The notes below the pieces were generated by a model. It worked only from the letters and a program-made list of their open reading frames with translations. It made no database searches and was not told where the DNA came from. This document shows, piece after piece, positions 25,211 to 43,996 of a DNA stretch of 64,000 nt. The DNA is taken from contig OZ244999.1 of NCBI GenBank assembly GCA_965223265.1, positions 1,120,001 to 1,184,000 of the forward strand. Reading direction: 5' to 3'. The DNA comes from Planctomycetota bacterium (GTDB lineage: Bacteria; Planctomycetota; UBA8108; SXIK01). Positions within the stretch are counted from its first letter, which is position 1. Every line of letters begins with the position of its first letter. Both the position numbers and the translations under genes were made by a program.

Positions 25211-25226
25211 TGGCCACGTATTCGCT
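25211..25226 (+). promoter_or_regulatory. Sigma54 (-24/-12) promoter of the nar-act operon
   Basis: TGGCCACGTATTCGCT has GG-N10-GC spacing, lies ~40 bp before the AGGAG-led ATG at 25267, and sits directly downstream of a sigma54 activator gene. Confidence 0.65.
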
Positions 25227-25266
25227 AACTGGACCCAGTGGTTACGCTTTCTGAGGAGAGAGCTGC

Positions 25267-26142
25267 ATGGAGAGACTGGAATATTCTCGTCGACGCGCTG
25301 TCGCGATGCCTCTGGCGTTCACGTTGTCGCTTCTGGCTTTTGGCAACAGCGTCACCCAGGGCCAGGATGCGGTGATCGCCGACTACAAGCAGAACTGTTT
25401 GAGTTGCCACACGATCGGAGGCGGCCGCATCACCGGGCCGGACCTTCAAAACGTTGACGAGCGTAAGGATCGAGAATGGCTGGTCGGCTTCGTCATGGAT
25501 CCGCTGGGTGTTCTCAACTCTGGCGACGAATACGCGCTCAAGATTAAGCAAGAGGCGCAGAACGTAGTCATGCCGAATGTCCCCGGCATGACTCGCGAGC
25601 GCGCCGAAGCTCTACTCGATCTCATCGCGGCCGAGTCCAAGCTGGAGAAGTCTCAATTCGTCGGTGTCCAGATCAGCGACCGACCGCTCACCGCCGCCGA
25701 TGTTCAGCGCGGGCGGGGCATGTTCATGGGAACAGTCCCGTTTGCAGGCGAAGGCGCCGCGTGTGTTTCGTGTCACGTCGTCACCGGCCTCGGAGGACTT
25801 GGTGGCGGCAAGCTCGGTCCGGATCTCACAAAGATCTTCGAGCGTCGCCAAGGGCGCAAAGGCCTGGTGGCGTGGCTCTCCGCGCCAGCGACCCCTGTCA
25901 TGCAGGCCACGTTCCGCGATCACCCCTTGGAAGGGGAAGAGATTCTCGGACTGGTAGCGTTTTTTCGGGAAACAGCGCAGCTGGACGAAACGTCACACGC
26001 CAATGCGACCCTCATGTTCATCATTCTCGGGGTCGCCGGCACCGTCGGCGTGCTGATCGTCTTCGGCTGGATCTGGGGCTATCGCTTCAGATCCGTTCGC
26101 CGAACTCTACTTCAGAAACGACCGGTGGGAGAACCCGTATGA
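25267..26142 (+). CDS. narC: Membrane-anchored periplasmic di-heme cytochrome c (NarC-like)
   Basis: Signal peptide; CLSCH..GGG...GPDL and CVSCH..GG.LGPDL; C-terminal TM; stop overlaps the narG ATG. Confidence 0.8.
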
Positions 26143-29100
26143 GCACGAACGGTAAGAATTCGTGGATTCACGACGAAGTCGCCCCCAAGTCTCGCGGCTG
26201 GGAAGAATTCTACCGCAACCGTTGGCAGTTCGACAAAGTTGTGCGCTCCACGCATGGCGTGAACTGCACAGGGGGGTGCACTTGGCAGATCCACGTGAAA
26301 GACGGCATCGTCACGTGGGAGATGCAAGGCCTTGACTATCCCTCGTTGGAGGCCGGCCTGCCGCCGTACGAGCCCCGCGGCTGTCAACGCGGCATCTCCT
26401 ACTCGTGGTACCTCTACAGCCCGCTCCGAGTGAAGTATCCCTACATTCGAGGCGCTCTACTCGACGCCTGGAAAAAGGCGCGCAGTAGCCACGAGGACCC
26501 CGTCGACGCCTGGACGGAGATGGTGGAGGACGAAACGATCCGGAGCCGCTGGCAGCGTGCCCGAGGCAAAGGCGGTTTTCGGCGGACGAGTTGGGACACG
26601 GTGCTCGAGATCATGGCGAGCGCCAACATCCATACGATCAAAAAGCACGGCCCCGACCGCATCGCAGGCTTCTCCCCTATTCCAGCTATGTCGATGGTCA
26701 GCTACGCGGCCGGTGCGAGGCTCATGCAGTTGATGGGCGGCATTTCACTCTCGTTCTACGACTGGTACTGCGACCTGCCCAACGCTTCGCCCGAATGCTG
26801 GGGCGAGCAGACGGACGTTCAGGAATCGGCTGACTGGTACAACGCGAAGCTGCTCGCTGTCATGGGGTCCAACCTCAACATGACGCGGACGCCCGACTGT
26901 CATTTCGCCGCCGAAGCGCGCCACAACGGCACGAAGATGTACGTCTTCTCACCAGACTTCAATCAGGTGGCGAAGTACGCCGATCACTGGGTGTCCCTCA
27001 ACGCGGGCCAGGACGGCGCCTGGTGGATGGCGACCAATCACGTGTTGCTCAAGGAGTTCCATTATGAGCAACAAGTGCCGTACTTCATCGACTACGCCAA
27101 GCGTTACACCGATTCTCCCTACCTCGTAGAGCTCACCGAGCGCGAGGGTGTTTTCAAGCCCGGCCAGCTTTTGCGCGCCAACCGTCTGTCTCCCTACGAG
27201 GACGTCGAGAACGGGGAGTGGAAGTTTCTGTTTTGGGACAAAGGGGAGGGCAAACCCAAGATGCCGATGGGTAGCGTCGGTTTCCGATGGGGAGAGGAGA
27301 AGGGCAAGTGGAACCTCGAGTTGAAGGACGGTGTGGATGGAAGTGAGATCGACCCAACACTCACCTTTCTCGACTCCAGCGATGAGGTCGCCCAAGTTCG
27401 ATTGGACGACTTTGCCGAGGGTTGCGTCCTGACACGCGGCGTTCCTGCGAAACGCCTCAAGACGTCGGACGGCTCCGAGGTTCTCGTCGCCACCGTATAC
27501 GACCTTCTGATGGCTCAGTACGGAGTGCCGAGAGGGCTCGAAGGAGAGTACCCCGAAGACTACGACGACGGCGACAAACCGTATACGCCCGCGTGGTCGG
27601 AGAAGTTCACCGGAATCGACCGTAAGGACCTCATCAAATTCGCTCGCGAATGGGGAACGACCGCGAAGTACACCAACGGGAGTTGCACGATCATCATCGG
27701 AGCTGGTATCAACCACTGGTACCACGCCAACCTGATGTACCGGGCAGGCATTCACGCACTCATGTTTTGCGGTTGCATTGGCGTCAATGGAGGCGGACTG
27801 GCGCACTACGTGGGTCAGGAAAAGTTGGCACCCGCTGAGCCTTGGGGAGCCATCGCCCTCGCCAAGGACTGGTACCCGCCATCGCGTGTCCAAAACGCGC
27901 CGAGCTGGCACTACGTCCACACCGACCAATGGCGATACGAGAAGGAATTCACCGACTATCATACGGTTCCCGCCGACCAGGAAGACGGCTCGCTCACGAA
28001 GGGGCATACGATGGACGTGCAGGTCCGTGCCGTGCGCAACGGCTGGCTCCCGTTCTATCCGCAGTTTCCGGAGAGCAGCCTCGAGCTAGTCAAGAAAGCC
28101 GAGGCCGCGGGCGCGAAGTCAGAGTCAGAGGTCGCTGAGTATATCGTCGACCGTCTCAAGGATCGTTCGCTGAAATTCTCTGTCGAGGATCCGGACGCTG
28201 CGGAGAACTGGCCTCGTGTCTGGTACATCTGGCGCGGCAACGCGCTGATGTCCTCTAGCAAGGGCCACGAGTATTTCCTCAAACACTACCTGGGGACCCA
28301 CCACAACGAGGTGGCAACCGACATCGCCGAAGAGGCGGTGAAGGAGGTCGTGTGGCACGAGAACGCGCCGCAGGGAAAGATGGACCTGGTGGTCGACCTG
28401 AACTTCCGCATGGACACGTCCGCCCTCTACTCCGACATCGTCCTCCCCGCCGCGACGTGGTACGAAAAGGCGGACCTCAATTCCACCGACATGCACAGCT
28501 TCATCCATCCGCTTTCCCAGGCGGTACCCCCCTGTTGGGAGTCGAAGAGCGATTGGGACATCTTTAAGAACCTTGCGCGAAAGTTTTCCGAGCTTGCGCC
28601 GCGTCACTTCCCCGAGCCGGTTAAAGATCTGTTGGCCGTGCCCCTCGCCCACGACACTCCAGCCGAGATCGCCCAGCCGAAGATTGTAGATTGGATCGAC
28701 GGGGACGTGGAACCGATTCCCGGCAAGACGATGCCGGGGCTGAAGGTCGTCACGCGCGATTACCAAAACCTCTACAACCAGTTCATCTCTCTCGGTCCGG
28801 TGGTGCGCAAAAACGGGCTCGGCGCTCACGGTACGGGTTACGCGATCGACGACTTCTACGATGAAATGCTCGCCACCCGTAGAGTCCAGGAGTGGGATGG
28901 AAACCGATTTCCATCAATCGAGAAAGACGTCGAGGTGTGTGACGCGATTCTCAACCTCGCCACTGTCACCAATGGCGAGCTTGCGTACCGCTCATACAAG
29001 AACATGGAGGAGAAGGTCGGGCTTCCGCTCGCCCACCTCGCCGAAAAAGATCGTAGCCGCCGGGTCGACTACGCCGGGCTGCAAGGCGCCCCCTTCCGGT

Positions 29101-29783
29101 TCAACAACAGCCCTATGTGGTCGGCCTTGATCGAGAACGGTCGAGCCTACTCGCCGTTCACTTACAACAAGGAGGCGCTCGTGCCCTGGAGGACACTGAC
29201 AGGGCGCCAACACTTCTACCTCGATCACCCCGGCTACCTGCAGTTCGGCGAGCACCTCCCGACTTACAAGCCGAAGCCTCTGCCCACCGAGTACGCTGAT
29301 CTCCGGATCAGTGAGCAAAGTGGACCGACACTGATGCTCAACTACCTGACACCCCACGGTAAGTGGCACATCCACTCGACCTACGGGGACAACGAGCGTA
29401 TGTCGACGCTGTCGCGAGGTGTCGAGCCGTTCTGGATCAACGACAAAGACGCGGCCGAAATCGATGTCGAGGACAACGATTGGGTCGAGGTCCACAACGA
29501 CCATGGTGTCGTGGTCACTCGCGCTGCGGTGAGCGCCCGGATCCCGCGCGGCGTTTGCATCATCTATCACTCGCCGGAGCGAACCTACTCGGTACCAAAG
29601 TCACCGCTTAGGAAGAATCGGCGGGCCGGCGGGCACAACAGCCTGACGCGCACTCGCCTGAAACCGAACTTGATGGTCGGTGGGTACGGTCAGTTCACGT
29701 ATCACTTTAACTACTGGGGACCCACGGGCTGCAATCGAGATACGCACATCTACGTGCGGAAGCTTCCGAAGCTCGTCTGGTAA
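26139..29783 (+). CDS. narG: Respiratory nitrate reductase alpha subunit (cytoplasm-facing NarG/NXR clade)
   Basis: Start ATG 26139; [72 protein letters not shown]. No Tat signal. Confidence 0.96.
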
Positions 29784-29798
29784 GAAAAGGAGACGCAA

Positions 29799-31292
29799 GT
29801 GGACGTTCGCTCGCAGATTTCGATGGTTTTTCACCTGGATAAATGCATCGGCTGCCACACCTGCAGCATCGCCTGCAAGAACGTGTGGACCGACCGCAAG
29901 GGTACTGAGTACATGTGGTGGAACAACGTCGAAACGAAGCCAGGTACGGGCTACCCCACCAAGTGGGAGGACCAGAAGGAGTACCGCGGCGGCTGGAAGA
30001 AGAAGGACGACGACAATCTCGAGCTGCGCTCCACAGACAAGAAGCGGATCGTTCCCAACATTTTCCACAACCCGTCCATGCCGAGTATGGACGAGTATTA
30101 CGAGCCCTGGACGTACAAGTACGAGGATCTCTTCAACGCACCCGAGGGAGACGATCAACCAACTGCACGACCGATCTCCAAAGTAACGGGCGAGTATATC
30201 AACGTCGAGTCGGGGCCGAACTGGGACGACGATCTCGGCGGTTCGCCGAACTACGCTGAGAACGACCCTAACCTCGAGGCTTTGACTCCGCAGGAGCGAG
30301 GTCAGCTCTTCGCTATTGAACGCCTGGTGTTCTTCTACTTCCCGCGGATTTGCAATCACTGCCTCAATCCGTCGTGCGTCGCTTCCTGCCCATCGGGAGC
30401 GCTCTACAAACGCGGCGAGGACGGCATCGTTCTGATCGATCAGAAAGTGTGCCGCGCCTGGCGCTCCTGCGTCGCCGCGTGTCCGTACAAAAAGACGTAC
30501 TACAACTGGTTCACCGGCAAGTCGGAGAAGTGCATCCTCTGCTTTCCGCGGATCGAGACGGGCCAGGCTCCCGCCTGCTTCCATTCGTGTGTGGGTCGCA
30601 TCCGCTATCTAGGAGTGCTGCTCTACGACGCGGACCAAATCGAAGAAGTCGCCAAAAAGCCCGACGATGAGCTGGTCGAAGCTCAGCGCGCGATGATTCT
30701 CGATCCTCACGACCCGGCTGTGATCAAGGCCGCCCAGAAAAACGGAATCCACGACGCCGTCATCGAAGCTGCGCAGCAGTCACCGGTCTACGAGTTCGTG
30801 AAGAAGTGGAAGATTGCGCTGCCACCGCATATCGAGTACCGAACCCTGCCGATGTTGTTTTACGTCCCGCCGCTTCTACCGGTCATGGCAAAACAAGGAG
30901 ACAAGACAGTCTCCAGTGTGTCGGACGATTTCTTCCACGAGATCGAGGAGGCGCGCATCCCCCTTGCCTTCCTCGGCAAGCTCTTCGGCGGTGGTAACGT
31001 CGGCAAGGTGTCTTATGCGCTGCGCAAGCAGATGGCCGTCCGTGCGTACCGCCGAGCCGTGACCGTCGGCGACATGGACCAGGAAATCGCGCGCCGCATG
31101 CTGCAGGAGGCCGATTGCTCCGAGCAGGAAGCTGAGGCGATCTACAAGCTCACGTCTCTGTGTACGTTCGAAGAACGATTTGTGATCCCTGCTGCCCAGC
31201 GCGAAGAGGCTATTGAGATGATGAAGGATCCGCTCGAGCACAAGCAGAACGCCGGTTTTGGTTTTCTGTCCGGCCCCCGGAGAGGACTCTGA
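29799..31292 (+). CDS. narH: Nitrate reductase beta (Fe-S) subunit
   Basis: LDKCIGCHTCSIACKNVW, PRICNHCLNPSCVASCPSG, CRAWRSCVAACPYKK, KCILCFPR, EYRTLPM. Confidence 0.96.
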   Translation: MDVRSQISMVFHLDKCIGCHTCSIACKNVWTDRKGTEYMWWNNVETKPGTGYPTKWEDQKEYRGGWKKKDDDNLELRSTDKKRIVPNIFHNPSMPSMDEYYEPWTYKYEDLFNAPEGDDQPTARPISKVTGEYINVESGPNWDDDLGGSPNYAENDPNLEALTPQERGQLFAIERLVFFYFPRICNHCLNPSCVASCPSGALYKRGEDGIVLIDQKVCRAWRSCVAACPYKKTYYNWFTGKSEKCILCFPRIETGQAPACFHSCVGRIRYLGVLLYDADQIEEVAKKPDDELVEAQRAMILDPHDPAVIKAAQKNGIHDAVIEAAQQSPVYEFVKKWKIALPPHIEYRTLPMLFYVPPLLPVMAKQGDKTVSSVSDDFFHEIEEARIPLAFLGKLFGGGNVGKVSYALRKQMAVRAYRRAVTVGDMDQEIARRMLQEADCSEQEAEAIYKLTSLCTFEERFVIPAAQREEAIEMMKDPLEHKQNAGFGFLSGPRRGL

Positions 31293-31295
31293 CCT

Positions 31296-31907
31296 ATGGA
31301 CGGCGACCGTTCCTTCTACAAGGATCTGGCAGTGCTCTTAAGCTATCCGGGCGATGCCGGTTACAAGGAGGCTGTCGATTACGCCATCAAGGGTTTGCAC
31401 AGGCTCAAGCCGGAGTTAGGAAAACTCCTGGCGCCGTTTGGCGAGTTCGTCGCTGCACACTCCGTCGAAGATCTCGAGGAGACTTACACACGCACCTTCG
31501 ATATCAATCCCGACTGCACGCTGGAGATCGGGTGGCAGCTCTACGGCGAAAACTACTCGCGCGGGAAGCTGCTGGTCACCATGCGTGGCCTCATGCGTGA
31601 GCTCGGTCTGGAGGAGTCTCCCGAGCTACCGGATCACCTGACTCACGTCTTGTCCATCATGGGTCAGCAGGAGACGCCGGCGGCCAAAGAGTTGGCCGCG
31701 AGCTACGTGCTTCCCGCGCTGGCAAAGATGCGCCTCGGGTTGCCGTCGGAAAACAAGGAGAAACCCCATGGGCTCGTTCTGGAGGCGATCGAAACCGTGC
31801 TCCGGGAGATCCACTCCATTCCAGCGGCTGATTCAGGCCTCGTGGAGTTGACCGTCCTTCCATCAGCGATCGACGAGGCATCCGAACCGTACAACGAGAT
31901 GACATGA
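31296..31907 (+). CDS. narJ: Nitrate reductase molybdenum cofactor assembly chaperone
   Basis: LL.YP, LEE.YT.TFD, GE...RG..L, ELPDHL; lies between narH and narI. Confidence 0.9.
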   Translation: MDGDRSFYKDLAVLLSYPGDAGYKEAVDYAIKGLHRLKPELGKLLAPFGEFVAAHSVEDLEETYTRTFDINPDCTLEIGWQLYGENYSRGKLLVTMRGLMRELGLEESPELPDHLTHVLSIMGQQETPAAKELAASYVLPALAKMRLGLPSENKEKPHGLVLEAIETVLREIHSIPAADSGLVELTVLPSAIDEASEPYNEMT

Positions 31908-32644
31908 TCGGAGGTCCCGTGCGAATTCTGGGATTTCTCGGCTTTGAAAAGCTTCAGTATCTCGACCAAATCCTCTTCGCGGTCTTTCCGTACCTGGCGT
32001 TCGGGCTGTTCTTGCTCGTAACGATTCAGAGGTACCGCAAGCAGTCGTTCACGTACTCCAGTCTCTCCTCGCAGTTCCTGGAAAACCGTCACCACTTCTG
32101 GGGTATGGTTCCGTTTCATTATGGCATCCTCGTGATCCTCGCTGGGCATGTCATTGCCTTTCTGATTCCTCGGCAGGTACTGCTTTGGAACCAGAACCCG
32201 CTGCGCCTCTACGTTCTCGAGATCTCGGCGCTCATCTTCGGCCTTCTGTGCCTCGTCGGTTTGGTCAACGTCATCATCCGGCGCTTTACGAGCCCGAAGC
32301 TCCGACAAGTGACGACGGTCTCCGATTGGATCATCTACGCCATGCTCCTCTTTCAGGTGTTCAGCGGTATCTACGTAGCAATCTTCGTAGGCTGGGGATC
32401 ATCCTGGTTCGCTTCAACCCTGACCCCCTACCTGTGGTCGCTACTCAAGCTCAACCCGGACATCTCTTACGTCACCTCCATGCCTTGGTGGGTGAAGTTG
32501 CACATCCTGTCGGCCTTTTCGCTGATTGCCTTTTTTCCGTTCACCCGACTGGTTCACATCCTCGTCATCCCCAACATGTACCTTTGGCGCCGGCCTCAGG
32601 TCGTGCGCTGGAACTGGGACCGCGAAAGAAGAAGGGTGGACTGA
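31904..32644 (+). CDS. narI: Nitrate reductase gamma subunit (di-heme cytochrome b)
   Basis: PY, SSQFLE, FHYGIL....GH, KLH, FPFTRLVH; all four heme-ligand His are present. Confidence 0.95.
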   Translation: MIGGPVRILGFLGFEKLQYLDQILFAVFPYLAFGLFLLVTIQRYRKQSFTYSSLSSQFLENRHHFWGMVPFHYGILVILAGHVIAFLIPRQVLLWNQNPLRLYVLEISALIFGLLCLVGLVNVIIRRFTSPKLRQVTTVSDWIIYAMLLFQVFSGIYVAIFVGWGSSWFASTLTPYLWSLLKLNPDISYVTSMPWWVKLHILSAFSLIAFFPFTRLVHILVIPNMYLWRRPQVVRWNWDRERRRVD

Positions 32645-32753
32645 ATACGACTGTGGCCATGCGTGAAGACCTCACTTCCGCGGGAGACAAGCGGCCTGCC
32701 GGGCCTGTCACGAACGGCTCGCGCAATACGCGAGCAACAAAAAAGGAAGGACC

Positions 32754-34370
32754 ATGGCACGATTAGAACGCTGGGAACCCGAAGACCCGCAGTTCTGGGA
32801 GGATACGGGCAAGGCCACGGCCCGTCGCAACCTCTGGGTCTCGATCCCCAACTTGCTATTAGGCTTCGCTGTTTGGATCTACTGGGGGATGGTCGCCAAG
32901 TACATTCAAAGACTCCACTTCGCGAGTGACGGTGAGCTTTTCAACTTCACCTTCATGAACGAAGGTCAACCCTTCGGCGACGACGGATACCGCGCTCTCT
33001 TGTTCACGCTACCGGCGGTGGCCGGCCTTGCCGGCGCAACCCTCCGGATTCCTAACTCGTTCATGATCGCGGTCTGCGGCGGGCGGAACGTGAAGTTCAC
33101 GACGACGCTGCTGCTGATCCTACCAGCCTTGGGCGCGGGGATCGCACTGCGCGATCACACGACGCCGTTTTACATCTTCATTCTCCTCGCTGCGCTCTCC
33201 GGCGTCGGCGGCGGCGCGTTCGCCTCCTCCATGTCCAACATCAGCTTCTTTTACCCCAAGCGGATGCAGGGGCTCGCGCTGGGCCTGAACGCGGGACTCG
33301 GAAACCTCGGCGTCAGCGTGATGCAGTTCCTGATTCCGTGGGTGATCACGTTTGGCCTCTTCGGGGCGTTGGGGGGAGAGCCCTATGAGACGATGAAGGA
33401 CGGCGAGACCTCGCAGCTCTGGATCCAGAATGCCGGTTTGGTCTGGGTGCCCATTCTCCTGACGTGTGCGATCCTGGCGTTCTTCTGCATGAACAACCTG
33501 CCTTTCCACAAGTGCGGACCGACGCCCATCGCCGTCTCGAAGTTCCTCTGGCTGACCGTGCTCGGATACCTCGGCGCAGGCGTCGGTATCTTCTTGCTCA
33601 TCATCCCCTGGGGCGGATTTCCGATGCTCCTGAAGACTTTCCTCGTCGTCGTCGTCGCCGTCGTCGTCACGCTGTCAGCCATGCGCTACCTCACTCCGAC
33701 CGAGACGAGGAAGAACCTCCATGACCAGTTCGGCATCTTCAAGGAGAAGCACAACTGGGTCATGACCTGGCTCTACGTCATGACTTTTGGTTCTTTCATC
33801 GGTTATGCCAACGCCTTTCCAAAACTCATCGATGACGTCTTCGGCGTCTACCGGGTCGGAGCGCGCGCGGGCGAGCTGACGGGACTTTCCAGCGCCGGCT
33901 ACATCTATATTGGAGCAGGCGTGGGTGCTCTGATCCGTCCGCTGGGCGGCTGGCTCTCGGACAAGCTAGGCGGCGCCCGGGTGACGCACTGGGATACGAT
34001 CATCATGATTGCGGCGACCATCGGCGCGGGCTACTTCTGTGCCATCGCGATGGAGTCCGAAACACCACAGCAGTATTTCACTCCTTTCCTGCTCACGTTC
34101 ATCGTGCTGTTCGCAACCACCGGCATCGGCAACGGTTCGACATTCCGCATGATCGGCGTGATCTTCCAAAAGGATCAGCGCGGACCGGTGCTCGGGTGGA
34201 CGTCGGCCATCGCAGCCTACGGCGCCTACCTCATTCCGAAGATCTTTGCGACGCAGATCAAGGCCGGGACGCCCCAGTACGCGCTGTACGGTTTTGCGGG
34301 CTACTATCTGTCGTGCCTCTTGGTGAACTGGTGGTTCTACGCTCGAAAGAACGCAGAGATCGAATGTTAG
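32754..34370 (+). CDS. narK: Nitrate/nitrite transporter (NarK/NarU, NarK2-type)
   Basis: WEPED..FW, RRNLW.S, GGG.FASSM.NIS.FYPK, GLNAGLGNLG, TFGSFIG, GIGNGSTF. Confidence 0.93.
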   Translation: MARLERWEPEDPQFWEDTGKATARRNLWVSIPNLLLGFAVWIYWGMVAKYIQRLHFASDGELFNFTFMNEGQPFGDDGYRALLFTLPAVAGLAGATLRIPNSFMIAVCGGRNVKFTTTLLLILPALGAGIALRDHTTPFYIFILLAALSGVGGGAFASSMSNISFFYPKRMQGLALGLNAGLGNLGVSVMQFLIPWVITFGLFGALGGEPYETMKDGETSQLWIQNAGLVWVPILLTCAILAFFCMNNLPFHKCGPTPIAVSKFLWLTVLGYLGAGVGIFLLIIPWGGFPMLLKTFLVVVVAVVVTLSAMRYLTPTETRKNLHDQFGIFKEKHNWVMTWLYVMTFGSFIGYANAFPKLIDDVFGVYRVGARAGELTGLSSAGYIYIGAGVGALIRPLGGWLSDKLGGARVTHWDTIIMIAATIGAGYFCAIAMESETPQQYFTPFLLTFIVLFATTGIGNGSTFRMIGVIFQKDQRGPVLGWTSAIAAYGAYLIPKIFATQIKAGTPQYALYGFAGYYLSCLLVNWWFYARKNAEIEC

Positions 34371-35062: not shown

Positions 35063-35076
35063 GTCAGGGTCATTTC

Positions 35077-38000
35077 ATGGCTTCGAACGCGGACGGCAAA
35101 GAGTATTGGAAGGCGCTCCACGAGCACGAGCGGGTGGACGTGCTAAGGGAGGATCTCGGGAATGAGTTTCCTCGCGGTCTCGTCGGCGACGCCGACTCCA
35201 CCGGGAAGCCCGCATCACCGGATGTGAAGCGTCGAGACTTCTTGAAGCTTTGTGGTTTCTCTTTGGGTGGTGCAACCATCGCGGGCTGCACGCGCGGCAA
35301 GGAGGAGAAACTCATCCCCTTCCTCATCAAGCCCGAAGAGGTGACGCCGGGCCGGGCGACGTGGTACAGCACCTCCTGTGGCGGCTGCCCCGCTGGTTGT
35401 GGTGTCCTCGCTAAGAACCGCGACGGGCGCCCCATCAAATTGGAAGGGCATCCGCAACACCCGCTCAACCGTGGTGGGCTCTGCGCTACAGGGCAGGCCT
35501 GCCTACTGGGTCTCTACGACTCGCGCCGCTTGAAACGACCTCGTGCCGACGGAGCCGATGCGAGCTGGCCGGAGGTGGATCGTCTCATTCGCCAAGAGTT
35601 GACGCGGATACGTTCCGAGGGCGGCAAGGTGCGCTTTTTGACCGAGACGCTCAACAGTCCGACGCTCACGGCGTCCATCGACGCGTTCCTTGCAACGTTC
35701 GAGGACGCCCGTCGAGTCGAATACGACCCAGTGTCCACCTCCGCTCTCCTTGATGCCCACGCAGAAGCGTACGGAGCTCGAGTCCTGCCGAGACTCCACT
35801 TCGAACGTGCCAAAGTGATCGTCAGCTTCGACGCCGACTTTCTCGGCACATGGATTTCACCTGTTGAGTTCACGGCTGGCTACCAGGATGGTCGCCAGCT
35901 TGAGGGCGAGAGCTCCACGTTCTCCTATCACGTGCAGGTGGAATCGCGCCTCTCCCTGACCGGTAGCAACGCGGACCATCGCCTCGTGATCCGCCCCGCT
36001 GATCAGACACTGATCATGGCGCACCTGGCGGAGCGGTTGGCGAAGAAAGCTGCAGTAGACTCTCCCTGGACGGCTCTCGACGCGGCGCCGATCGCCGCTT
36101 CAGAATTGGATGCTCTGGCCGACCGTCTCTGGGGGGCCCCGCGAGGCGAGACTCTTGTCGTCTGCGGAACGGACGACTTGGAAGCGCAGCGGCTCACAAT
36201 CTTCCTCAACAACATCCTAGGAAACGACCGCCCGGACGGCGGCGGATCTGTCGACCTGACGCGACCATCATTTCAGCGCCAAGGCAGCGACCGCGACCTC
36301 AGCGCACTCATCGAAGAGATGCGCTCGGGAGAGGTAACGGCGCTCTTCGTGGACAGCGTTGACCCCGTCTACGATCTTCCCGCAGTCGCGGGATTCACCG
36401 AGGCGCTGAAGCAGGTGCGTTTCGTCGTTAGTTTCGCAGAGCGTATGAACGATACGGCCGCAGTGGCGCGTTACGTCTGTCCCCGTCACGACGCCTTCGA
36501 GTCGTGGCGAGATGCCGAGCCGATCGCCGGCGTGCTCACGGTCGGCCAACCGCTCATCGCGCCGCTGGGTGATACGCGCTCCGTCGTCGAGAGTTTGGCC
36601 ATCTGGCAGGAGAAGGGCGCCGATCATCTTCAGATCCAGCGAGACGTCTGGCGTCAGAAGGTGTTTCCGCGACAGCAAGACGAGAACGACTTCGACGCTT
36701 TTTGGGATCGGTCCGTCCACGACGGCTTCGCGGTGGTCTCCGCTGGCGTCGCCGGTGAACTCTCCACGTATCGAAAACCACCGCTGAGGCGCCCTACGCC
36801 GACCCCATCGGAGCAAGCAATGCTGGAGCTGGTCCTCTACTCGAAAGTGAGCCTCGGTGACGGGCGTCACGCCTACAACCCTTGGCTCCAGGAGCTCCCC
36901 GATCCGATCAGCAAGGTGACTTGGGATAACTACGCTTCGCTCGCCCCGCGGACGGCTGCCGAACTCGGGCTGCAGACAGGTGACGTCGTCCGTGTCGGCG
37001 ATGGAAAAGCCTCGATTGATGTGCCAGTCCTGCTGCAACCAGGACAGCACCCCTCGACGGTCGCAGTCGCGCTCGGCTATGGCCATAGGGGCAGTGAACG
37101 CTTCGCGGACATTGGGCCTGAGTGGATTCACAAGCGGCCGACGATTTCGACAGGGGAGCGAGTCGGCCGCAATGCTGCCGCACTCATCCGGCTTGCAGAT
37201 GGGCGTCGGCGCTACAGCGCGTCGCCCGTTTCCATAGAGAAGACCTCTGGGGGGCATTCTCTGGCCACTACCCAGTCGCACCACTCCCTGAGCGTCCCCG
37301 CGCATCTCGCCGGTACGCATGAAGGTCCGCGTCCGATCGTTCAGGAGACAACCCTCGAAGCGTACCGGAAGGATCCAAGCTCTGGTTCCCACAAGCACCA
37401 CGAGCTCCTGTCAATCTGGAGCGAGGACCATCGATACGACGGGCACCACTGGGGGATGGCAATCGACCTCAGCCGGTGTACGGGCTGCAGTGCATGCGTG
37501 CTCGGCTGCCAGGCGGAGAACAATATCCCCGTCGTGGGTAAGGACGAAGTCCTGCGAGAGCGTGAGATGAGCTGGCTTCGCATCGATCGCTACTACAGCG
37601 GCGACGACGATATCGAGGTTGTCCACCAACCCATGATGTGTCAGCACTGCGACAACGCACCGTGCGAAAACGTGTGCCCTGTGTTGGCCACAGTGCACAG
37701 CTCTGAAGGCCTCAATCAGCAGGTCTACAATCGCTGTGTCGGCACGCGCTACTGCGCCAACAACTGCCCCTACAAGACACGACGTTTCAACTGGTTCGAT
37801 TACCCCCGGGAGGACTCAGTTGAGAACATGGTGCTCAATCCGGACGTCACTGTCCGATCGCGGGGCATCATGGAGAAATGCTCGTTTTGTGTCCAGCGCA
37901 TCCAAGAAGCCAAGGCTGAAGCGAAACGAACTGGACGTTCACTCCGCGATGGGGATGTCCAGCCTGCTTGCCAGCAGTCCTGCCCGAGCAAGGCGATCGT

Positions 38001-38160
38001 TTTCGGCGACCGCAATGACCCCAAGAGTGAGATCTCGAGAAGGATGAAGGACCCGCGGCACTTCCGTGTCCTCGAGGAATTGAACGTACTGCCTTCCGTC
38101 GGGTATCTCACCTCCGTCAAGAACCGCGCTCCGAAGGAGGGAGACGAGCACCATGGCTAG
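35077..38160 (+). CDS. actB: Alternative complex III ActB (Mo-enzyme-like B1 plus Fe-S B2), Tat-exported
   Basis: EYWK.L, RRDFLK; [11 protein letters not shown]; [18 protein letters not shown]; [53 protein letters not shown]. Confidence 0.93.
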
Positions 38161-39526
38161 CGTCACTTCACCCCTCCGACAACCGCTCGTCAGCGGCGAT
38201 AAGGACTGCGCACAGGTCACGATAGACGTTTGCAGCCCTCTGGAACGGAAACCAACCCGGCTGTGGTACATCGCTTTCGCGGTCGCCTTGGCGCTGCTTC
38301 TTATCGGCGTGATCGCCGTGGCCTATCAGATCGCCGTTGGCATCGGGACCTGGGGGCTGAACAAGACGGTGGGCTGGGCGTTCGACATCACGAACTTTGT
38401 GTTTTGGATCGGCATCGGTCACGCGGGAACGCTGATTTCGGCGATCCTTTTTCTCTTTCGCCAGCGCTGGCGCACCGCGGTGAACCGATCGGCCGAGGCG
38501 ATGACGATCTTCGCCGTCATGTGTGCGGGGATCTTTCCTTTGATCCACATGGGTCGCCCTTGGCTGGCCTATTGGGTCCTACCCTATCCGAACACGCGTG
38601 GTCCCCTGTGGGTCAACTTCCGCTCCGCTCTTCTGTGGGATGTATTCGCTATCAGTACGTATTTTCTTATCTCTCTCGTCTTCTGGTATCTCGGTCTCGT
38701 GCCCGACTTCGCTACTCTGCGCGACCGCGCCAAAACAAAAATCCGCCGCGCCCTCTTCGGCTTCTTTAGTCTCGGTTGGAACGGCTCCAACAGAACGTGG
38801 CGGCACTACGAGATCGTTTACCTTTTGCTTGCCGGCCTGGCTACTCCCCTTGTGCTATCCGTCCACACGATCGTCAGTTTCGATTTCGCGACGTCGGTGA
38901 TTCCTGGCTGGCACACGACGATTCTACCGCCGTACTTCGTGGCCGGAGCGATCTTCAGCGGCATGTCCATGGTCTTAACTCTGATGCTCATCGCCCGAAA
39001 GGTCATGAACTTTGAAGACTACATCACGACGAACCACATCGACGCGATGTGCAAGCTCGTGCTCGCGACGGGAGGGATGGTCGCTTTAGCCTACGGCACT
39101 GAGTTCTTTATCGCGCTCTACTCGGGCAACCAGTACGAACGCTTTGCGTTCGTCAACCGAGCGATGGGCCCCTTCGCGTGGGCCTACTGGATTATGGTGA
39201 GCTGCAACGTCCTCGTGCCGCAGCTCTTTTGGTCACGGAGGATTCGCAGAAGTGTGGGCCTCGTCTTCATCCTCGCACTTCTCGTCAACGTCGGCATGTG
39301 GTTTGAGCGCTTCGTCATCATAGTGATCTCACTCCATCGCGATTTCCTGCCTTCGAGCTGGGCGGACTACACGCCGACTTCGATCGAGATCGCTACTCTG
39401 GCCGGCAGCTTCGGCCTTTTCTTCACCTGCTTTCTGATCTTCTGCCGCTTCCTGCCGATGATCGCCATCGGCGAGGTAAAAGGTGTACTCAGCTACGCCC
39501 GTGCAAAGAGAGAACGTCACCGATGA
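38153..39526 (+). CDS. actC: Alternative complex III quinol-binding NrfD/PsrC-family subunit
   Basis: [66 protein letters not shown]. Confidence 0.95.
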
Positions 39527-40050
39527 AAGCCAACGGATCACGTCACTGGATCGCCGCTTTCGCGTCCGAGGAGGACATCCTGGGCGTTACCAACACCTCA
39601 CGTCAGCGAGGCTACAGAATCGTCGATGTCTACACTCCGTACGCGGTGCACGGGCTCGACGACGCCATGGGCCTGAAGCGATCGCGGATCACCTGGGTGT
39701 GTTTCTTTGCCGGCCTGGCCGGAGCCGTCGGGATGCTCTGGCTGGGCACGTGGACCCTGGCGGTGGACTGGCCCACGAACATCGGCGGCAAACCGTTCAA
39801 CTCGCTTCCAGCGATCATCCCCGTTGTCTTCGAAGTAACCGTCCTGCTCGCCGGCTTTGGCAGCGTGTTCGCTCTGCTGATCTGCTGCCGCCTCTTTCCC
39901 GGCAAGCAGGCAACGCTGCCTGCGCCCGGTGTGACGGACGACCGGTTCGTCCTCGTCTTGGAGGAGACAGACTCATCCGTCGATCCGCGTGACGTCGAAG
40001 ATCTCTTCGAGGAGTACGGAGCCGTCGAAGTCGAGACTCGCTACGAGTAG
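39523..40050 (+). CDS. actD: Alternative complex III ActD (DUF3341)
   Basis: [36 protein letters not shown]. Confidence 0.93.
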
Positions 40051-40057
40051 AGATACC

Positions 40058-40630
40058 ATGAAACTCGGCAAACTGAACGTGACGCTTATCGCCTTTCTCT
40101 GCGTCGGCGTGGGCGTCCACCTGAGTGTTCGTCCAGACGCGAGCCGGAGAAACTTCGAGTTCTTGCCGGAAATGGTAGAGTCAGTGCCCTTCGACGCCCA
40201 GGGGCCGAACGACAACTTTCTGGATGGCAAGAATCTACGTTCCCCCGTTCCTGGAACGATCGCGCGTGGTTACCTGCCTCTACGCTACGCCCCGACTCCA
40301 GAGGATGCCCTGCGCGCGGGCAAGGAGCTGGTGAACCCCTTTGATTCTGCGGACGAGGCAGCGCTGGCGCGCGGCGCGTTCGTCTACCAAAACTTCTGTC
40401 AGGTTTGTCACGACTCCGCCGGACTCGGTAAGGGAGTCCTCAGCACGCGTGGAGTTCCGCCGCCGCCGTCGCTTAAGGCCGAGCGTGCGCTGGCAATGAA
40501 AGACGGTCAGATGTTCCACGTCCTCAGCTTCGGACAGGGCAACATGGGTTCCTACGCCTCCCAGCTGGACCGAGATGATCGGTGGAAAACCATTCTTTAC
40601 GTGCGTTCGCTACAGAAGAAAGAACCATGA
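40058..40630 (+). CDS. actE: Alternative complex III monoheme cytochrome c
   Basis: Start ATG 40058; P.M..S, R.PVPGTIARG, NP, CQVCH, DG..FH....G..NMGSYASQ....DRW....YVRSLQ. Confidence 0.9.
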   Translation: MKLGKLNVTLIAFLCVGVGVHLSVRPDASRRNFEFLPEMVESVPFDAQGPNDNFLDGKNLRSPVPGTIARGYLPLRYAPTPEDALRAGKELVNPFDSADEAALARGAFVYQNFCQVCHDSAGLGKGVLSTRGVPPPPSLKAERALAMKDGQMFHVLSFGQGNMGSYASQLDRDDRWKTILYVRSLQKKEP

Positions 40631-41823
40631 AGGAACAGAAGCGCAGCGTGCCAGCACAACTGCCGCGGGTCGAGCTTCGGAGAGATTGGGGCATCACCCT
40701 CGGGGTGCTCGTCGGCCTCGGCGCCGTGGCCGTCCTCGTCGGCCTAGCCATCGACCCGCAGCGAGCCGGAGGCAACTTTCTCCTGTCACTATTCTTCCTT
40801 CTCGGTCTAGGCCTCGCCGGGCTCCTGTTTATCGCGCTTGTCGCAATCTCGAGTGGATCCTGGGCCGTCGTCCTGCGTCGCATTCCCGAGGCGATGGCCG
40901 CAACTCTTCCGGTCTGCATGGTCCTGTCGATCGGGCTCTTCGCGCTGATCCCTTTTCTCTACGAATGGAGTCATGCCGAAGCGGTGGCAAGTGACGAGCT
41001 CCTTGCACACAAGAGCGCGTGGCTAAACACTACGTCCTTCATCGTCCGGACACTCATCTGCAGTGCACTGTGGTTGCTGTTCGCTCATCTCTTGGTCGGA
41101 CGATCGCGCCGACGGGATATCGAATCGAGCGCGAGCGAGGGAGGTGTGAGCATCGGCCTACCTGCGCTCTTTGTTGTGCTGTTTGCGATCACCTTTTCAG
41201 TGGTCAGCTTCGATTGGGTCATGTCGCTCGAGCCTCACTGGTTCAGCACGATCTTTGCCGTCTACAACTTCGCGGGGCTGTTTCTCAGCGGTCTTGCCGC
41301 GATCACATTGCTCGTCATTGTGCTGCGGAGGCTGGGGCCGCTGCGGGATCTTGTCACTGTGGACCATCTGCACGATCTCGCCAAACTCTTATTGGGGTTC
41401 AGCGTCTTCTGGGCATACATCTGGTTCAGCCAGTTCATGCTGATCTGGTACGGTAACATTCCCGAGGAGAGTTCCTATTTCCACTTGCGACAACGAGGGA
41501 GTTGGGAGGTCCTCTTCGTCCTCAACATCTTCGTCAACTGGATCATTCCGTTCCTGGTCCTTCTGCCGAGGACGTCGAAACGCAATGAGACCGTTCTCCT
41601 CAACGTCTGTCTCCTCCTCATCGCTGGGCGATGGCTGGACCTCTACTTGATGGTCCTGCCACCGCTGGTAGGCGATGAACCGAAATTCGGCTTCTACGAG
41701 GCGCTGCCTTTCGCTGGAGCGGTCGCGCTCTTTCTTCTGGTCGCCTTCCGTTCGCTTGGGAAGTTCAACATCATCCCGGTGAGGGATCCTCTGTTGGAGG
41801 AGAGCTTGCACCACCACCAGTGA
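40627..41823 (+). CDS. actF: Alternative complex III ActF (membrane subunit)
   Basis: W..VLRR..EA, LYEW, K.AWLN, DWVMSLEPHWFST, HLHDLAK, FWAYIWFSQFMLIWYGNIPEE. Confidence 0.93.
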   Translation: MKEQKRSVPAQLPRVELRRDWGITLGVLVGLGAVAVLVGLAIDPQRAGGNFLLSLFFLLGLGLAGLLFIALVAISSGSWAVVLRRIPEAMAATLPVCMVLSIGLFALIPFLYEWSHAEAVASDELLAHKSAWLNTTSFIVRTLICSALWLLFAHLLVGRSRRRDIESSASEGGVSIGLPALFVVLFAITFSVVSFDWVMSLEPHWFSTIFAVYNFAGLFLSGLAAITLLVIVLRRLGPLRDLVTVDHLHDLAKLLLGFSVFWAYIWFSQFMLIWYGNIPEESSYFHLRQRGSWEVLFVLNIFVNWIIPFLVLLPRTSKRNETVLLNVCLLLIAGRWLDLYLMVLPPLVGDEPKFGFYEALPFAGAVALFLLVAFRSLGKFNIIPVRDPLLEESLHHHQ

Positions 41824-42144
41824 CGTTCCGTCCGATCGAGAAGAGCCAAGAGATCGTTGGCGCGCTGCCGTTCGAGAAACCGAGTCACTGGAACGGGCGC
41901 CTCCAACCATACGACACTTGTCTCGTGCAAGCGAAGGAAGGTGTGCCACTGCGGCCGAGCCGCGCATACCGCAGTATGCGGACACAACTCTCTGGGGCGA
42001 CCACAGTTGCGCTATCGCCTTGCGAAGCACCGCCGCTCCGAGTACGCACCAGCACGCCGAGGCCTCGGATTCGGCGGCCATTCTCATTTCCACAAGGCAA
42101 TTCGTCGCAATGCGTTACAACCTGACATGCTTTGCGAGTCCGAG

Positions 42145-42160
42145 CGGCACGGCGTTTCCT
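42145..42160 (+). promoter_or_regulatory. Possible second sigma54 promoter (CGGCACGGCGTTTCCT)
   Basis: Strong -24 box GGCACG and TTT before the -12 position, but -12 reads CC rather than GC; ~55 bp before the second narK. Confidence 0.35.
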
Positions 42161-42214
42161 TGAGAGACTGCGGGCGGACGAGTATGCAAAGGAACGCCGG
42201 CGCGGAGGACATCG

Positions 42215-43996
42215 ATGGAAGTCCGTAACAAGGCAACGAGTATTGATCTGTTCACGTTGAGGACGCCCCAAATGCGGGCGTTCCATATGAGTTGGTTCGC
42301 CTTCTTCCTTTGCTTCTTCGCGTGGTTTGGCATCGCGCCCTTGATGGCGGTCGTGAGGGAAGAGCTGGCTCTCACGAAGCAGCAGATCGGCAATACGATC
42401 ATCGCGTCCGTGGCGATCACGATTTTGGCGCGTCTGCTCATCGGCTGGCTTTGTGACCGCGTTGGTCCGCGGCTCAGCTACACTCTTCTGCTCGTCTTCG
42501 GGTCGCTGCCCGTCATGGGCATCGGCCTGTCACAAGACTACACGACATTCCTGCTGTTTCGGCTCGGCATCGGCACCATCGGCGCGTCTTTCGTCATCAC
42601 GCAGTATCACACGTCGGTGATGTTCGCCCCGAACGTCGTTGGAACGGCCAATGCGACGTCCGCCGGCTGGGGCAACCTGGGAGGTGGCGTCACGCAGATG
42701 GTGATGCCACTCGTCATGGCAGCGTTCCTCGCGATGGGGCTGAGTGACGCCGCGAGCTGGCGTGCGGCGATGGTTGTCGCGGGAGCGGTCTGCCTCGTGA
42801 CTGGCGTTGGGTACTGGTTCTTTACTACCGACCTGCCAGACGGGAACTTCAAGGAGCTGCGGGCCAAAGGCGAGTTAGCGACCGTCGCGAAGACGAAAGG
42901 CACCTTCTGGTCGGCGGTCAAGGACTACCGAGTCTGGGCCCTCTTCGTCATCTATGCTGCTTGTTTTGGCATCGAGCTCACGATTAACAACATCGCCGCG
43001 ATCTACTACAAGGACTACTTCGGCCTTGGTCTCAAGACTGCTGGGCTCGTCGCCGGACTCTTCGGCCTGATGAACATTTTCGCGCGGACACTCGGTGGGT
43101 ACATCAGCGATCGTTTTGTGCGCAACGGTGGTCTTCGGGGTCGTGTCCGCTGGCTCTTTATTGCCCTTCTCGTTGAGGGGGTTGCGCTCGTGATCTTCTC
43201 GCGGATGACGGTGATTGCCCTAGCCGTTCCGTCCATGATTCTCTTCAGCCTCTTCGTTCAGATGTCGGAGGGCGCCACGTATTCGGTCGTCCCCTTCATC
43301 AACAAGAAAGCCCTTGGTGCGGTGGCCGGCATCGTCGGCGCCGGTGGCAACATGGGTGCCGTCTGCGCCGGGTTCCTCTTTCGGGCGGAGAACATCTCTT
43401 ATCCCCAGGCTCTACTGATCTTGGGGTGCTGCGTCACCGTCTGCGCCTTCTGCACGTTTCTCGTGCGCTTCAGTCCCGCTCAAGAGGAAGTCGCCGCCAA
43501 AGAGTTCGCTCATGCCATGGCGAGGCGCCGAGTCGAACGGAGGGAGCGTGTGCCCCTGGGTGAACTCATACCGGGTATCCGACACATCCGACCGATGGAC
43601 GCTCTGCGGATCTATCTCGGCATCGCTTTGATGATCAAAGGGATCTACTACATCATGAACATGTCGGAGCTCGAGGCTTCGCTGAGTGAAGGACTGGGTC
43701 TCGGGCAGCAGATGATTGCCTGGTCGGTCGTGTTTGCGCACGTCATCGCCGGTGCAAGTCTCGCGCTGGGGTTCGTGACTCGAATGGCTGCCGGGGCGAA
43801 CGCCATCGTCATGGCGGGCGCTGTCGTGGTCAGCCTGACTGGCGCCGAAGGAAGCCTGTGGGGATCGAACCTGAGCTTTCAATTCACGCTGCTCATCCTG
43901 TTCTCGCTGGTGCTGCTGGTCTGGCGAGGGTCCGGACCCTTCTCACTCGATCACCTGCTGCGCATCGACGAGGAGAAGGAGCCGGAAGTCTTCTGA
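42215..43996 (+). CDS. narK: Nitrate transporter (NarK1/NRT2-type MFS) fused to a C-terminal DoxX-like domain
   Basis: MRAFHMSW.AFF.CF..WF, GASFVITQYHTS.MF, GTANATSAGWGNLGGG, ACFGIELT, EGATY.VVPF. From ~43595, LRIYLG...KG...G..TR.AA...GSGPFSLD (DoxX). Confidence 0.9.
   Translation: MEVRNKATSIDLFTLRTPQMRAFHMSWFAFFLCFFAWFGIAPLMAVVREELALTKQQIGNTIIASVAITILARLLIGWLCDRVGPRLSYTLLLVFGSLPVMGIGLSQDYTTFLLFRLGIGTIGASFVITQYHTSVMFAPNVVGTANATSAGWGNLGGGVTQMVMPLVMAAFLAMGLSDAASWRAAMVVAGAVCLVTGVGYWFFTTDLPDGNFKELRAKGELATVAKTKGTFWSAVKDYRVWALFVIYAACFGIELTINNIAAIYYKDYFGLGLKTAGLVAGLFGLMNIFARTLGGYISDRFVRNGGLRGRVRWLFIALLVEGVALVIFSRMTVIALAVPSMILFSLFVQMSEGATYSVVPFINKKALGAVAGIVGAGGNMGAVCAGFLFRAENISYPQALLILGCCVTVCAFCTFLVRFSPAQEEVAAKEFAHAMARRRVERRERVPLGELIPGIRHIRPMDALRIYLGIALMIKGIYYIMNMSELEASLSEGLGLGQQMIAWSVVFAHVIAGASLALGFVTRMAAGANAIVMAGAVVVSLTGAEGSLWGSNLSFQFTLLILFSLVLLVWRGSGPFSLDHLLRIDEEKEPEVF

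Follow-up and report, generated by a model that had tools for sequence, protein, structure and literature searches.

NarGHI is the textbook nitrate reductase that needs no complex III, and the alternative complex III (ACIII) studied so far passes its electrons, to our knowledge, only to oxygen reductases or photosynthetic carriers. The locus described here raises the question of why the genes for both should stand together. It lies in a stretch of 64,000 nucleotides of a Planctomycetota genome (contig OZ244999.1, positions 1,120,001 to 1,184,000; hereafter the window, in whose numbering coordinates are given unless megabases or a contig are named), where twelve genes on the + strand, narC-narG-narH-narJ-narI-narK-actA-actB-actC-actD-actE-actF, form one run at 25267-41823. 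The answer that we develop is that a dedicated ACIII may cooperate with a four-subunit NarCGHI in nitrate respiration. The genes of the run are as follows.

25267-26142, + strand: narC, periplasmic cytochrome c with two hemes and a membrane anchor at its C-terminus (CxxCH motifs, hydrophobic stretch, Pfam cytochrome c)
26139-29783, + strand: narG, catalytic subunit, cytoplasm-facing type (TIGR01580, 1492 bits, cut-off 1084)
29799-31292, + strand: narH, iron-sulfur subunit (TIGR01660, 646 bits, cut-off 524)
31296-31907, + strand: narJ, assembly chaperone (PF02613, 35 bits, cut-off 22.2)
31904-32644, + strand: narI, membrane subunit with two b hemes (TIGR00351, 128.8 bits, cut-off 105.55)
32754-34370, + strand: narK, nitrate/nitrite transporter of the major facilitator superfamily (MFS_1; NF011608, 292 bits, and TIGR00886, 267 bits, both under cut-off)
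34364-35062 (alternative start 34388), + strand: actA, five-heme cytochrome c with an N-terminal helix (6btm_A, E-value 1.4e-48)
35050-38160, + strand: actB, molybdopterin-like and iron-sulfur subunit (6f0k_B, E-value 6.3e-179; RRDFLK)
38153-39526, + strand: actC, NrfD-like membrane subunit with the quinol site (6btm_C, E-value 4e-187; PF03916)
39523-40050, + strand: actD (PF11821, 183 bits)
39989-40630 (possible start ATG 40058), + strand: actE, one-heme cytochrome c (6f0k_E, E-value 3.3e-21)
40582-41823 (possible start ATG 40627), + strand: actF, second NrfD-like membrane subunit (6f0k_F, E-value 2.2e-68)

The genes are closely packed, the largest gap between narC and actF being 109 nucleotides (nt), between narI and narK, and the narC/narG junction is an ATGA overlap. 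A preliminary description of this DNA had read the nar and act genes as contiguous and followed by a second nitrate transporter, and every gene that it named was found in that place on the + strand. It had also placed the narK stop over the start of actA. This holds if actA begins at ATG 34364, since the narK stop codon is TAG 34368-34370; if ATG 34388 is used, the two genes are separated by 17 nt. The further overlaps that it gave, within actB/C/D and between actE and actF, are seen in the listed open reading frames (ORFs): actB and actC share 8 nt, actC and actD meet in ATGA, and the actE and actF frames overlap as listed. The second transporter follows actF after 391 nt, and this interval holds no extra gene; actG itself was not searched by any model.

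We first consider what the act genes encode. ActA, ActB, ActC, ActE and ActF match chains of solved ACIII structures (6f0k, 6btm, 6lod and 8k9e, which are Flavobacterium, Rhodothermus, Roseiflexus and Chloroflexus-type entries), and ActD was identified through its Pfam family, PF11821, with the sole ActD match in the genome. The Pfam scan returned no match for actF. The six subunits A to F are encoded together and in order, and they are the same six in the same order as in the ACIIIs of Rhodothermus marinus, Flavobacterium johnsoniae and Roseiflexus. ActA carries five CxxCH motifs and no CxxCK, ActE carries one CxxCH, and ActB combines the twin-arginine motif RRDFLK with Fer4 iron-sulfur domains. 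Models of related complexes were also matched, all under their cut-offs: ActA and ActB match the QrcA, QrcB and QrcC models, and ActA, ActB and ActC match Qrc and Dsr models. The QrcABCD complex of sulfate reducers has related subunits, whereas here all six Act subunits are present; Qrc reduces menaquinone and is not known to have ActD, ActE or ActF. From its sequence, the six-gene cluster is a true alternative complex III, with a predicted activity as a quinol oxidoreductase that acts on cytochrome c or another acceptor and uses no molybdenum cofactor.

In the nitrate reductase half of the run, NarG, NarH and NarI all score above curated equivalog cut-offs, and NarJ is above the cut-off of its Pfam family and below that of TIGR00684 (51.5 versus 59.35 bits). 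Reading of the NarG N-terminus revealed no twin-arginine leader or export signal, and the enzyme is therefore of the cytoplasm-facing type. NarC has a signal-like N-terminus, two CxxCH motifs (residues 44 and 166) and, over 245-263, a hydrophobic stretch, and its invariant residues are C44, C47, H48, M102, C166, C169, H170 and M212. This is the architecture of the Thermus-type NarC, a periplasmic two-heme protein with a membrane anchor whose gene is the first of the nar operon. A search for NarC homologues at an E-value of 1e-5 or better returned 2567, and 0 of the 120 that were listed carry the source name NarC.

The association of the two gene sets was followed in 80 loci, which were fetched by ActB from species-representative genomes and annotated by tblastn with the window proteins. 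The 17 closest loci (ActB 46-60% and ActC 67-80% identity) come mostly from metagenome-assembled genomes (MAGs) of Planctomycetota; the exceptions are a MAG of Byssovorax (Myxococcota) and two whose label is Bacteroidota. Three of the 17 are uninformative, as two start at actB and one has only 869 nt upstream. In all 14 close loci having upstream sequence, nar genes lie directly upstream of actA on the same strand; nar genes were found in 0 of the 63 more distant ActB loci. One relative, G001, shows the full arrangement, from the kinase gene described below through the last transporter. Among 41 kin genomes, narG occurs in four, which are exactly those with low ActD Pfam scores (156-183 versus 196-228 bits). 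An even sample of 401 Planctomycetota genomes contains 57 with narG; of these, 41 have ActD on the narG contig, in the same orientation and 7.8-13.2 kb downstream of narG. Nine of the remaining narG genomes are cut by contig ends and seven are unlinked, so that linkage is found in 41 of 48 uncut genomes. The linked genomes span at least 16 family codes; because related genomes are not independent, these figures are counts and not a statistical test. The adjacency of nar and act is therefore spread through the phylum and not missing from the relatives of this bacterium, and the comparison supports the conclusion that the act genes are not a chance neighbor of nar.

The nar-linked complexes also stand apart from other ACIIIs in trees of ActC. 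Tree 1, a quick maximum-likelihood tree of 85 rows, is unrooted; L023, L032, L033, L090 and L106 were dropped from it for coverage under 90%, and L094, L095, L097 and L098 as duplicates or for want of actC. In this tree a nar-linked group of 18 rows (14 nar-linked, four with their context cut) has an SH-aLRT support of 98 and contains no cox-linked member. Tree 2, likewise a quick search, with 43 rows taken from the 85 plus five new ones, recovered the same group, enlarged by three to 21 rows, with a support of 94. Where at least 4 kb of sequence follows actF, cox1 was found after it in 0 of 9 nar-type loci, in 51 of 51 of the Bacteroidota type and in 6 of 6 of the Planctomycetota cox type, and no gene is conserved downstream of actF in the nar-type loci beyond the transporter in the order of the window itself. 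Respiratory and photosynthetic ACIIIs feed aa3 or caa3 oxidases or auracyanin, and in the loci examined their genes adjoin cox genes; in contrast, the clade to which the ACIII of the window belongs sits behind nar and never beside cox1, has a five-heme ActA and has its NarC-like domain encoded separately. Some labels disagree with the tree. Contigs labelled Caulobacter (L053) and Phycisphaerales (L068) fall among near-identical Chitinophagaceae/Sphingobacteriales rows, and L014 and L027, labelled Bacteroidota, fall inside the nar-type clade; these disagreements may be binning errors or gene transfer.

If the two complexes work together, NarC is the candidate for their link, being the only c-type redox protein encoded in the operon besides ActA and ActE. 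The preliminary description had suggested structure predictions of NarC with ActA or ActE and with NarI. In the prediction of NarC with NarI the two proteins dock; the ipSAE interface scores are 0.85, 0.85 and 0.83, while the highest-scoring of three controls has 0.00. This mark is attained by 58 of 80 complexes of solved structure and by 2 of 110 mismatched pairs, a calibration that is rough here because our own alignments were used. The model runs share at least 79% of their contacts, and the pLDDT of the partner is at least 82. In the model, the C-terminal helix of NarC (248-274) packs on residues 106-118 and 160-165 of NarI, while the domain of the second NarC heme (154-183 and 209-215) covers the periplasmic loops of NarI, including the stretch around Arg101. 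A search with NarC against the sequences of the PDB yielded no similar solved complex. The modelling thus supports the view that NarC sits on NarI. In Thermus, two-hybrid data show that NarC binds NarI (PMC7694296); for the planctomycete pair the evidence of binding is the model.

On the other side of the proposed link, NarC resembles a part of ActA. Of all chains in the PDB it matches best the N-terminal part of Flavobacterium ActA (6btm_A, residues 60-135; E-value 2e-6), and in seven Bacteroidota loci ActA and a NarC-like region share one ORF (E-values 9e-10 to 3e-24), one of these fusions spanning both NarC heme domains. The ActA of F. johnsoniae has an extra sixth-heme domain, described as membrane-anchored and mobile and proposed to shuttle electrons out of ACIII to the oxidase (PMC8552683). 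ActA has five hemes in 19 of 19 nar-type loci and six or seven in 58 of the 59 uncut ORFs from 63 Bacteroidota loci. This pattern may be read as an ActA without its output domain, the homologous domain being supplied by the Nar-tethered NarC. The reading is only suggestive, because the ActA of the Planctomycetota cox type also has five hemes (8 of 9).

A variant of the operon bears on the same point. In three genomes that share one family code (G311, G325 and G353), the nar-type ACIII is separated from narGH and is instead found in an operon of the order narC-like, narI-like, actABCDEF (L125:4898-14504 in G325, L124:9861-19257 in G353 and L128:4946-13579 in G311). A gene of the NarI family lies directly 5' of actA in all three (PF02665, E-values 4e-13, 3.5e-10 and 1.3e-6), and a NarC-like cytochrome c gene was recognized in two of them. 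All three hold a complete narCGHJI elsewhere. The variant NarI-like proteins keep both histidines of the outer heme, while the first histidine of the inner heme is gone and the second is missing or shifted. The ActC of the variant falls within the nar-type group in tree 2. That an ACIII keeps NarC- and NarI-like partners without NarGH argues that its contact is with the NarC-NarI membrane module. The gene lepA is found upstream in L125 and L128, and the ORF before the narI-like gene in L128 has no Pfam match.

The run is flanked by genes and sites that may control it. From 21.3 to 44.0 kb the + strand carries, in order, a sensor kinase gene, an NtrC-type regulator gene, the nar genes, the act genes and the gene of a NarK-DoxX transporter, with the following features outside the run.

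21293-23569, + strand: sensor histidine kinase (Pfam HAMP, PAS, HisKA, HATPase)
23553-24974, + strand: NtrC-type response regulator, sigma-54 activator (PF00158, 210 bits; GAFTGA at residue 230)
25003-25018, no strand: palindrome GCATAC-N4-GTATGC, putative activator binding site 5' of narC (pattern scan)
25211-25226, + strand: -24/-12-like promoter element TGGCCACGTATTCGCT (a lead from reading the sequence)
41964-41979, no strand: second palindrome GCATAC-N4-GTATGC, 5' of the second transporter (pattern scan)
42145-42160, + strand: second -24/-12-like element CGGCACGGCGTTTCCT (2 mismatches to the consensus)
42215-43996, + strand: second NarK-family transporter with a C-terminal DoxX domain (TIGR00886, 300 bits, cut-off 311.7; DoxX, 37 bits)

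The preliminary description had placed the whole cluster in a single sigma-54 operon. The machinery for sigma-54 dependence is present, namely an enhancer-binding activator domain with GAFTGA and two rpoN genes in the genome (7158881-7159357 and 5073831-5074307 of the contig); a -24/-12-like site stands before narC, and the kinase and regulator gene pair is also found 5' of narC in G001, G014, G016 and G331. The palindrome, which stands about 260 nt 5' of narC, occurs in its full form in only two copies in 9.18 Mb, the two listed above; the scan of the genome found no copy before actA. A loose form of the pattern matches 21 times in the genome, where about 29 matches would be expected. Similar palindromes are found 5' of narC in G001, G014 and G016, and the same three relatives have GGCA(C/T)-N5-TT(T/C)C sites there. 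The palindrome may be the operator of the NtrC-type regulator encoded next to it; if so, this cluster would make up the entire regulon.

The promoter itself is less clear. The site at 25211-25226 has the form GG-N10-GC and differs from the strict sigma-54 consensus by more than three mismatches. The relatives keep GGCA(C/T) but not the -12 GC, this position being CC or TC in them and in the second site, which resembles the narC-upstream sites of G014 and G016. At up to three mismatches, the sigma-54 consensus has 82 matches in the window against 92 expected, which is not above chance. Scans of 24900-44500 for sigma-70 promoters (3 versus 4.4 expected) and for terminators (18 versus 15.3) were likewise not above chance and are uninformative on internal signals. 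Because the second transporter carries its own palindrome and promoter-like site, and none stands before actA, a single regulator seems to govern two units, one running from narC to actF and the other being the NarK-DoxX transporter, and we infer co-transcription from narC to actF. The activator, its GAFTGA motif, rpoN and the site before narC are in keeping with the sigma-54 part of the earlier description, as a probable mode of control; the single operon needs correcting, given the separate site of the second transporter. In L016, L018, L019, L021 and L026 the NarK-DoxX fusion is kept between narI and narK (68-77% identity, 99% coverage). One of the rpoN genes lies about 20 kb from the aa3 oxidase and cytochrome b region.

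What the ACIII could deliver its electrons to depends on the rest of the genome, which is a single contig of 9.18 Mb, 91.65% complete by marker genes. A profile search found one ActD, that of the operon, and hence no second ACIII. The window had been described as free of heme-copper oxidase, nir and nrf genes, and whole-genome searches upheld this: COX1 matches occur only at 5.04 and 5.285 Mb, far from the cluster, NirK is not found in the genome, and the NirS and NrfA models gave only partial matches of 20-27 bits. The two heme-copper oxidases are of the A type (aa3), beside a CoxII gene, and of the cbb3 type, at a locus that encodes CcoN, FixO, a cytochrome c and a P-type ATPase. The suggested check for a second ACIII or bc1 complex was thus negative on the first count and positive on the second, as the genome has three cytochrome b loci, one of them a complete Rieske-cytochrome b-multiheme cytochrome c operon and one near the A-type oxidase. 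The complete operon, at 5730624-5733880 of the contig (L119:4624-7880), is of the bc type and encodes a Rieske protein, cytochrome b and a 535-residue multiheme cytochrome c that replaces cytochrome c1. A multi-heme PF13447 match at 5.73 Mb, considered as an octaheme nitrite reductase, is actually this cytochrome c subunit. The genome also contains one ORF for a siroheme-type reductase. A search for NosZ (PF18764) gave no match in the genome or in the controls and is hence uninformative.

Nine genomes with the nar-type ACIII were examined in the same way. The nar-linked complex is the sole ACIII in eight of them. NirK over the cut-off and real NrfA were found in 0 of 9 (the NrfA model gave partial matches of 19-27 bits), and NirS gave only weak matches of at most 35 bits. 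Heme-copper oxidases are present in all nine.

These results can be assembled into a path from quinol through ACIII and NarC to NarI, NarH and NarG that would be specific to nitrate. The genes narC to actF would be co-expressed from a sigma-54-type promoter under the adjacent two-component system, and the same regulator would switch the NarK-DoxX transporter through that gene's own copy of the site. Menaquinol would be oxidized at ActC, and electrons would pass through the iron-sulfur clusters of ActB to the five hemes of ActA, and perhaps to the heme of ActE, on the periplasmic side. They would then reach the outer heme domain of NarC, which would be tethered by its C-terminal helix with its second heme domain on NarI, cross the membrane through the two b hemes of NarI and pass by NarH to NarG, where nitrate would be reduced in the cytoplasm. 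ACIII couples quinol oxidation to proton translocation by a mechanism that is poorly understood, according to PMC7439408. On this route the Nar redox loop would keep its charge separation, and any proton translocation by ACIII would come on top of it. As NarI probably takes quinol directly, the ACIII route would be a second entry of higher yield and not the sole one. What is inferred in this scheme is that ACIII touches NarC, that electrons flow in this direction and that more energy is gained, and we regard the path as a whole as evenly balanced between right and wrong. The weaker claim, that this ACIII works with the NarC-NarI module in some direction, has somewhat the better of that balance. 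A stronger form, in which ACIII, NarC and NarGHI make up one nitrate 'respirasome' supercomplex and a pumping ACIII route adds a coupling site absent from the textbook NarGHI loop, in Planctomycetes and a few acquirers, is possible but rather doubtful; within it, the narC'-narI'-actABCDEF variant would be a remnant or an offshoot.

Several observations weigh against the proposed path. All four heme histidine ligands of NarI align with those of the E. coli NarI chain, so that NarI looks competent alone, and the position of E. coli Lys86, which we take to be a residue of the quinol site, is Arg101 in this NarI. To judge from this alignment, NarI can probably still oxidize quinol directly; since the heme ligands and the basic residue are kept, ACIII is not needed to feed Nar. 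The cbb3 and aa3 oxidases of the genome need a cytochrome c reductase. A cbb3-subunit-like COX1-family match (about 210-224 bits over about 470 residues) is found in most of the other nar-type genomes and leaves a low-oxygen role open. Linkage to ACIII is dispensable in 7 of the 57 narG genomes. These seven comprise two whose only ACIII is cox-linked and located elsewhere, one whose canonical ActD is on a different contig, one without ActD and the three with the variant operon. NarC does not discriminate either. It is near-universal in planctomycete nar operons, ACIII-linked or not: narC lies directly 5' of narG in 5 of 5 further loci tested, and 53 of 55 additional narG-bearing Planctomycetota genomes also have it beside narG. 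A two-by-two test of NarC presence against ACIII linkage was set aside for this reason. The NarC-NarI model was made without hemes, and the NarI alignment behind it was shallow, with 11 rows. In one tree the nar-type clade has the Planctomycetota cox type as its sister group and in the other the Bacteroidota cox type, and because of this difference we make no claim on its origin. Class I c-type hemes usually have a higher potential than the b hemes of NarI, so that the step from NarC to NarI may be uphill. The flow proposed for Thermus is the opposite one, from NarI to NarC (PMC7694296). The dedicated ACIII-NarC-Nar module of the preliminary description is thus borne out by the nar-specific clade, the phylum-wide synteny and the NarC-NarI model, but an obligatory role of ACIII is not, given an apparently competent NarI and the presence of oxidases.

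The evidence must also be weighed under other explanations. The ACIII may be a general low-oxygen quinol:cytochrome c reductase that is co-regulated with Nar and feeds cbb3, aa3 or another periplasmic acceptor, with NarC serving only in structure or maturation. Such a role would suit the cbb3 (CcoN, FixO, P-type ATPase) and A-type oxidases of this genome, the similar COX1-family matches in other nar-type genomes, the standing of the nar-linked complex as sole ACIII in eight of nine genomes and the apparent ability of NarI to oxidize quinol alone; moreover, Thermus NarC is needed for the maturation of Nar, as reported in PMC7694296. However, the three cytochrome b loci, with their complete Rieske operon, make the oxidases independent of ACIII, and the nar-type ACIII is beside cox1 in 0 of 9 loci, compared with 51 of 51 and 6 of 6 in the other types. 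The regulatory palindrome is found only at the nar-act cluster, and the NarC- and NarI-like genes stay with ACIII once narGH moves away. Taken together, these findings make a general low-oxygen reductase unlikely, in our judgment. The path from ACIII to Nar through NarC could also run in reverse. Nar would then act as a nitrite oxidoreductase, or periplasmic donors would reduce cytochrome c, and ACIII would work in the manner of Qrc, passing electrons from cytochrome c to menaquinone at the expense of the membrane potential. The under-cut-off matches of ActA and ActB to the QrcA, QrcB and QrcC models agree with this, as does a similar narC-containing cluster said to serve nitrite oxidation in Nitrobacter (PMC7694296), and PMC10732223 could assign no direction to planctomycete NarG/NxrA sequences. 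The two NarK-type transporters are compatible with either direction. No RuBisCO large subunit was found in the genome, at its completeness of 91.65%, other carbon-fixation routes not having been searched, and nothing else points to lithotrophy. NarG scores as a narG equivalog, a result that a Nitrobacter-type NxrA might also give. We consider operation in reverse to be improbable.

The third explanation is the one in print. In PMC10732223 (2023), 13 instances of nar genes upstream of an unnamed six-gene cluster are described in Planctomycetota MAGs from a tunnel biofilm, with sigma-54 and NtrC-family regulators nearby; the cluster is said to match no described complex, and a nitrite reductase or a part of an electron transport chain is proposed. 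Its arrangement is the same as here, and our locus L028 bears an OFTM isolate name, as the MAGs studied there do. If the cluster were a new membrane-bound nitrite reductase resembling NrfAH, the lack of a known nitrite reductase in the nine nar-type genomes would be accounted for; the ActA of G044 has a weak match to the NrfA model (26.6 bits), and the HHpred result of the authors of PMC10732223 points the same way. Yet five of the subunits match solved ACIII chains (E-values 3e-21 to 4e-187) and ActD is recognized by its Pfam model, the five heme motifs of ActA are all CxxCH without a CxxCK among them, and the same architecture serves oxidases elsewhere. We therefore hold a nitrite reductase to be very improbable indeed. 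PMC10732223 does not recognize the cluster as an ACIII, whereas here it is named as such, counted across the phylum and tied to NarC and NarI; this identification would replace the reading as an unknown complex or nitrite reductase.

To place the cooperation of ACIII with NarCGHI among known systems, the closest comparison is the narCGHJIKT operon of Thermus thermophilus, which, like the present one, begins with the gene of a two-heme membrane-bound NarC and encodes a cytoplasm-facing Nar and two transporters, a likeness of architecture and not the result of a sequence comparison. The Thermus operon is without act genes, whereas here the complex III analogue is co-encoded. The role proposed for NarC in Thermus is to take electrons away from NarI to nitrite and nitric oxide reductases, in place of complex III (PMC7694296); no such reductases were found here. 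In Thermogutta terrifontis, bc1 genes lie next to narGHI and have been proposed to act in nitrate respiration, according to PMC5673643. That complex is a Rieske/cytochrome b one and comes without NarC, in contrast to the ACIII, inward-facing Nar and NarC of the present locus. The haloarchaeal pNar presumably offers a further case of adjoining Rieske/cytochrome b genes, with an enzyme that faces outward.

The review PMC8076601 makes no mention of Nar outside its reference list. Apart from PMC10732223, we found no description of nar next to act in the open literature, an earlier mention in subscription journals being possible. The preliminary description knew of no characterized example, which stands insofar as we found neither an experiment nor a recognition of ACIII, but the adjacency itself had already been printed in PMC10732223. 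What is new here, as read from the sequences, is the identification of the cluster as an ACIII, its prevalence in the phylum and its assignment to a separate clade that is never cox-linked, together with the homology of NarC to a domain of ActA, the NarC-NarI model and the narC'-narI'-act variant.

If electrons do take the path through ACIII and NarC to Nar, nitrate respiration would be coupled to more than the 2 H+ per 2 e- of the Nar loop. NarC, a family of more than 2,500 members, would gain a function, and the many planctomycetes that have nar without any known nitrite reductase would be explained. Alternatively, if the pairing is dedicated, NarC-type nitrate reductases would exchange electrons with the periplasmic heme pool in ways that have not been described.

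Three further genes or gene pairs near the cluster deserve mention. On the - strand at 17971-19290, 6 kb 5' of the cluster, a 439-residue protein combines a RoxA-like cytochrome c domain with another heme c region, and no relative examined has it linked to the cluster. Directly after the cluster, on the - strand at 44408-46831, lies the gene of an 807-residue protein with 14 GloVer tandem repeats (TIGR03803, 825 bits). Beyond it, at 47006-51903, the gene of an extracytoplasmic function (ECF) sigma factor overlaps that of a 1415-residue protein with a Ser/Thr kinase domain and many WD40 repeats.

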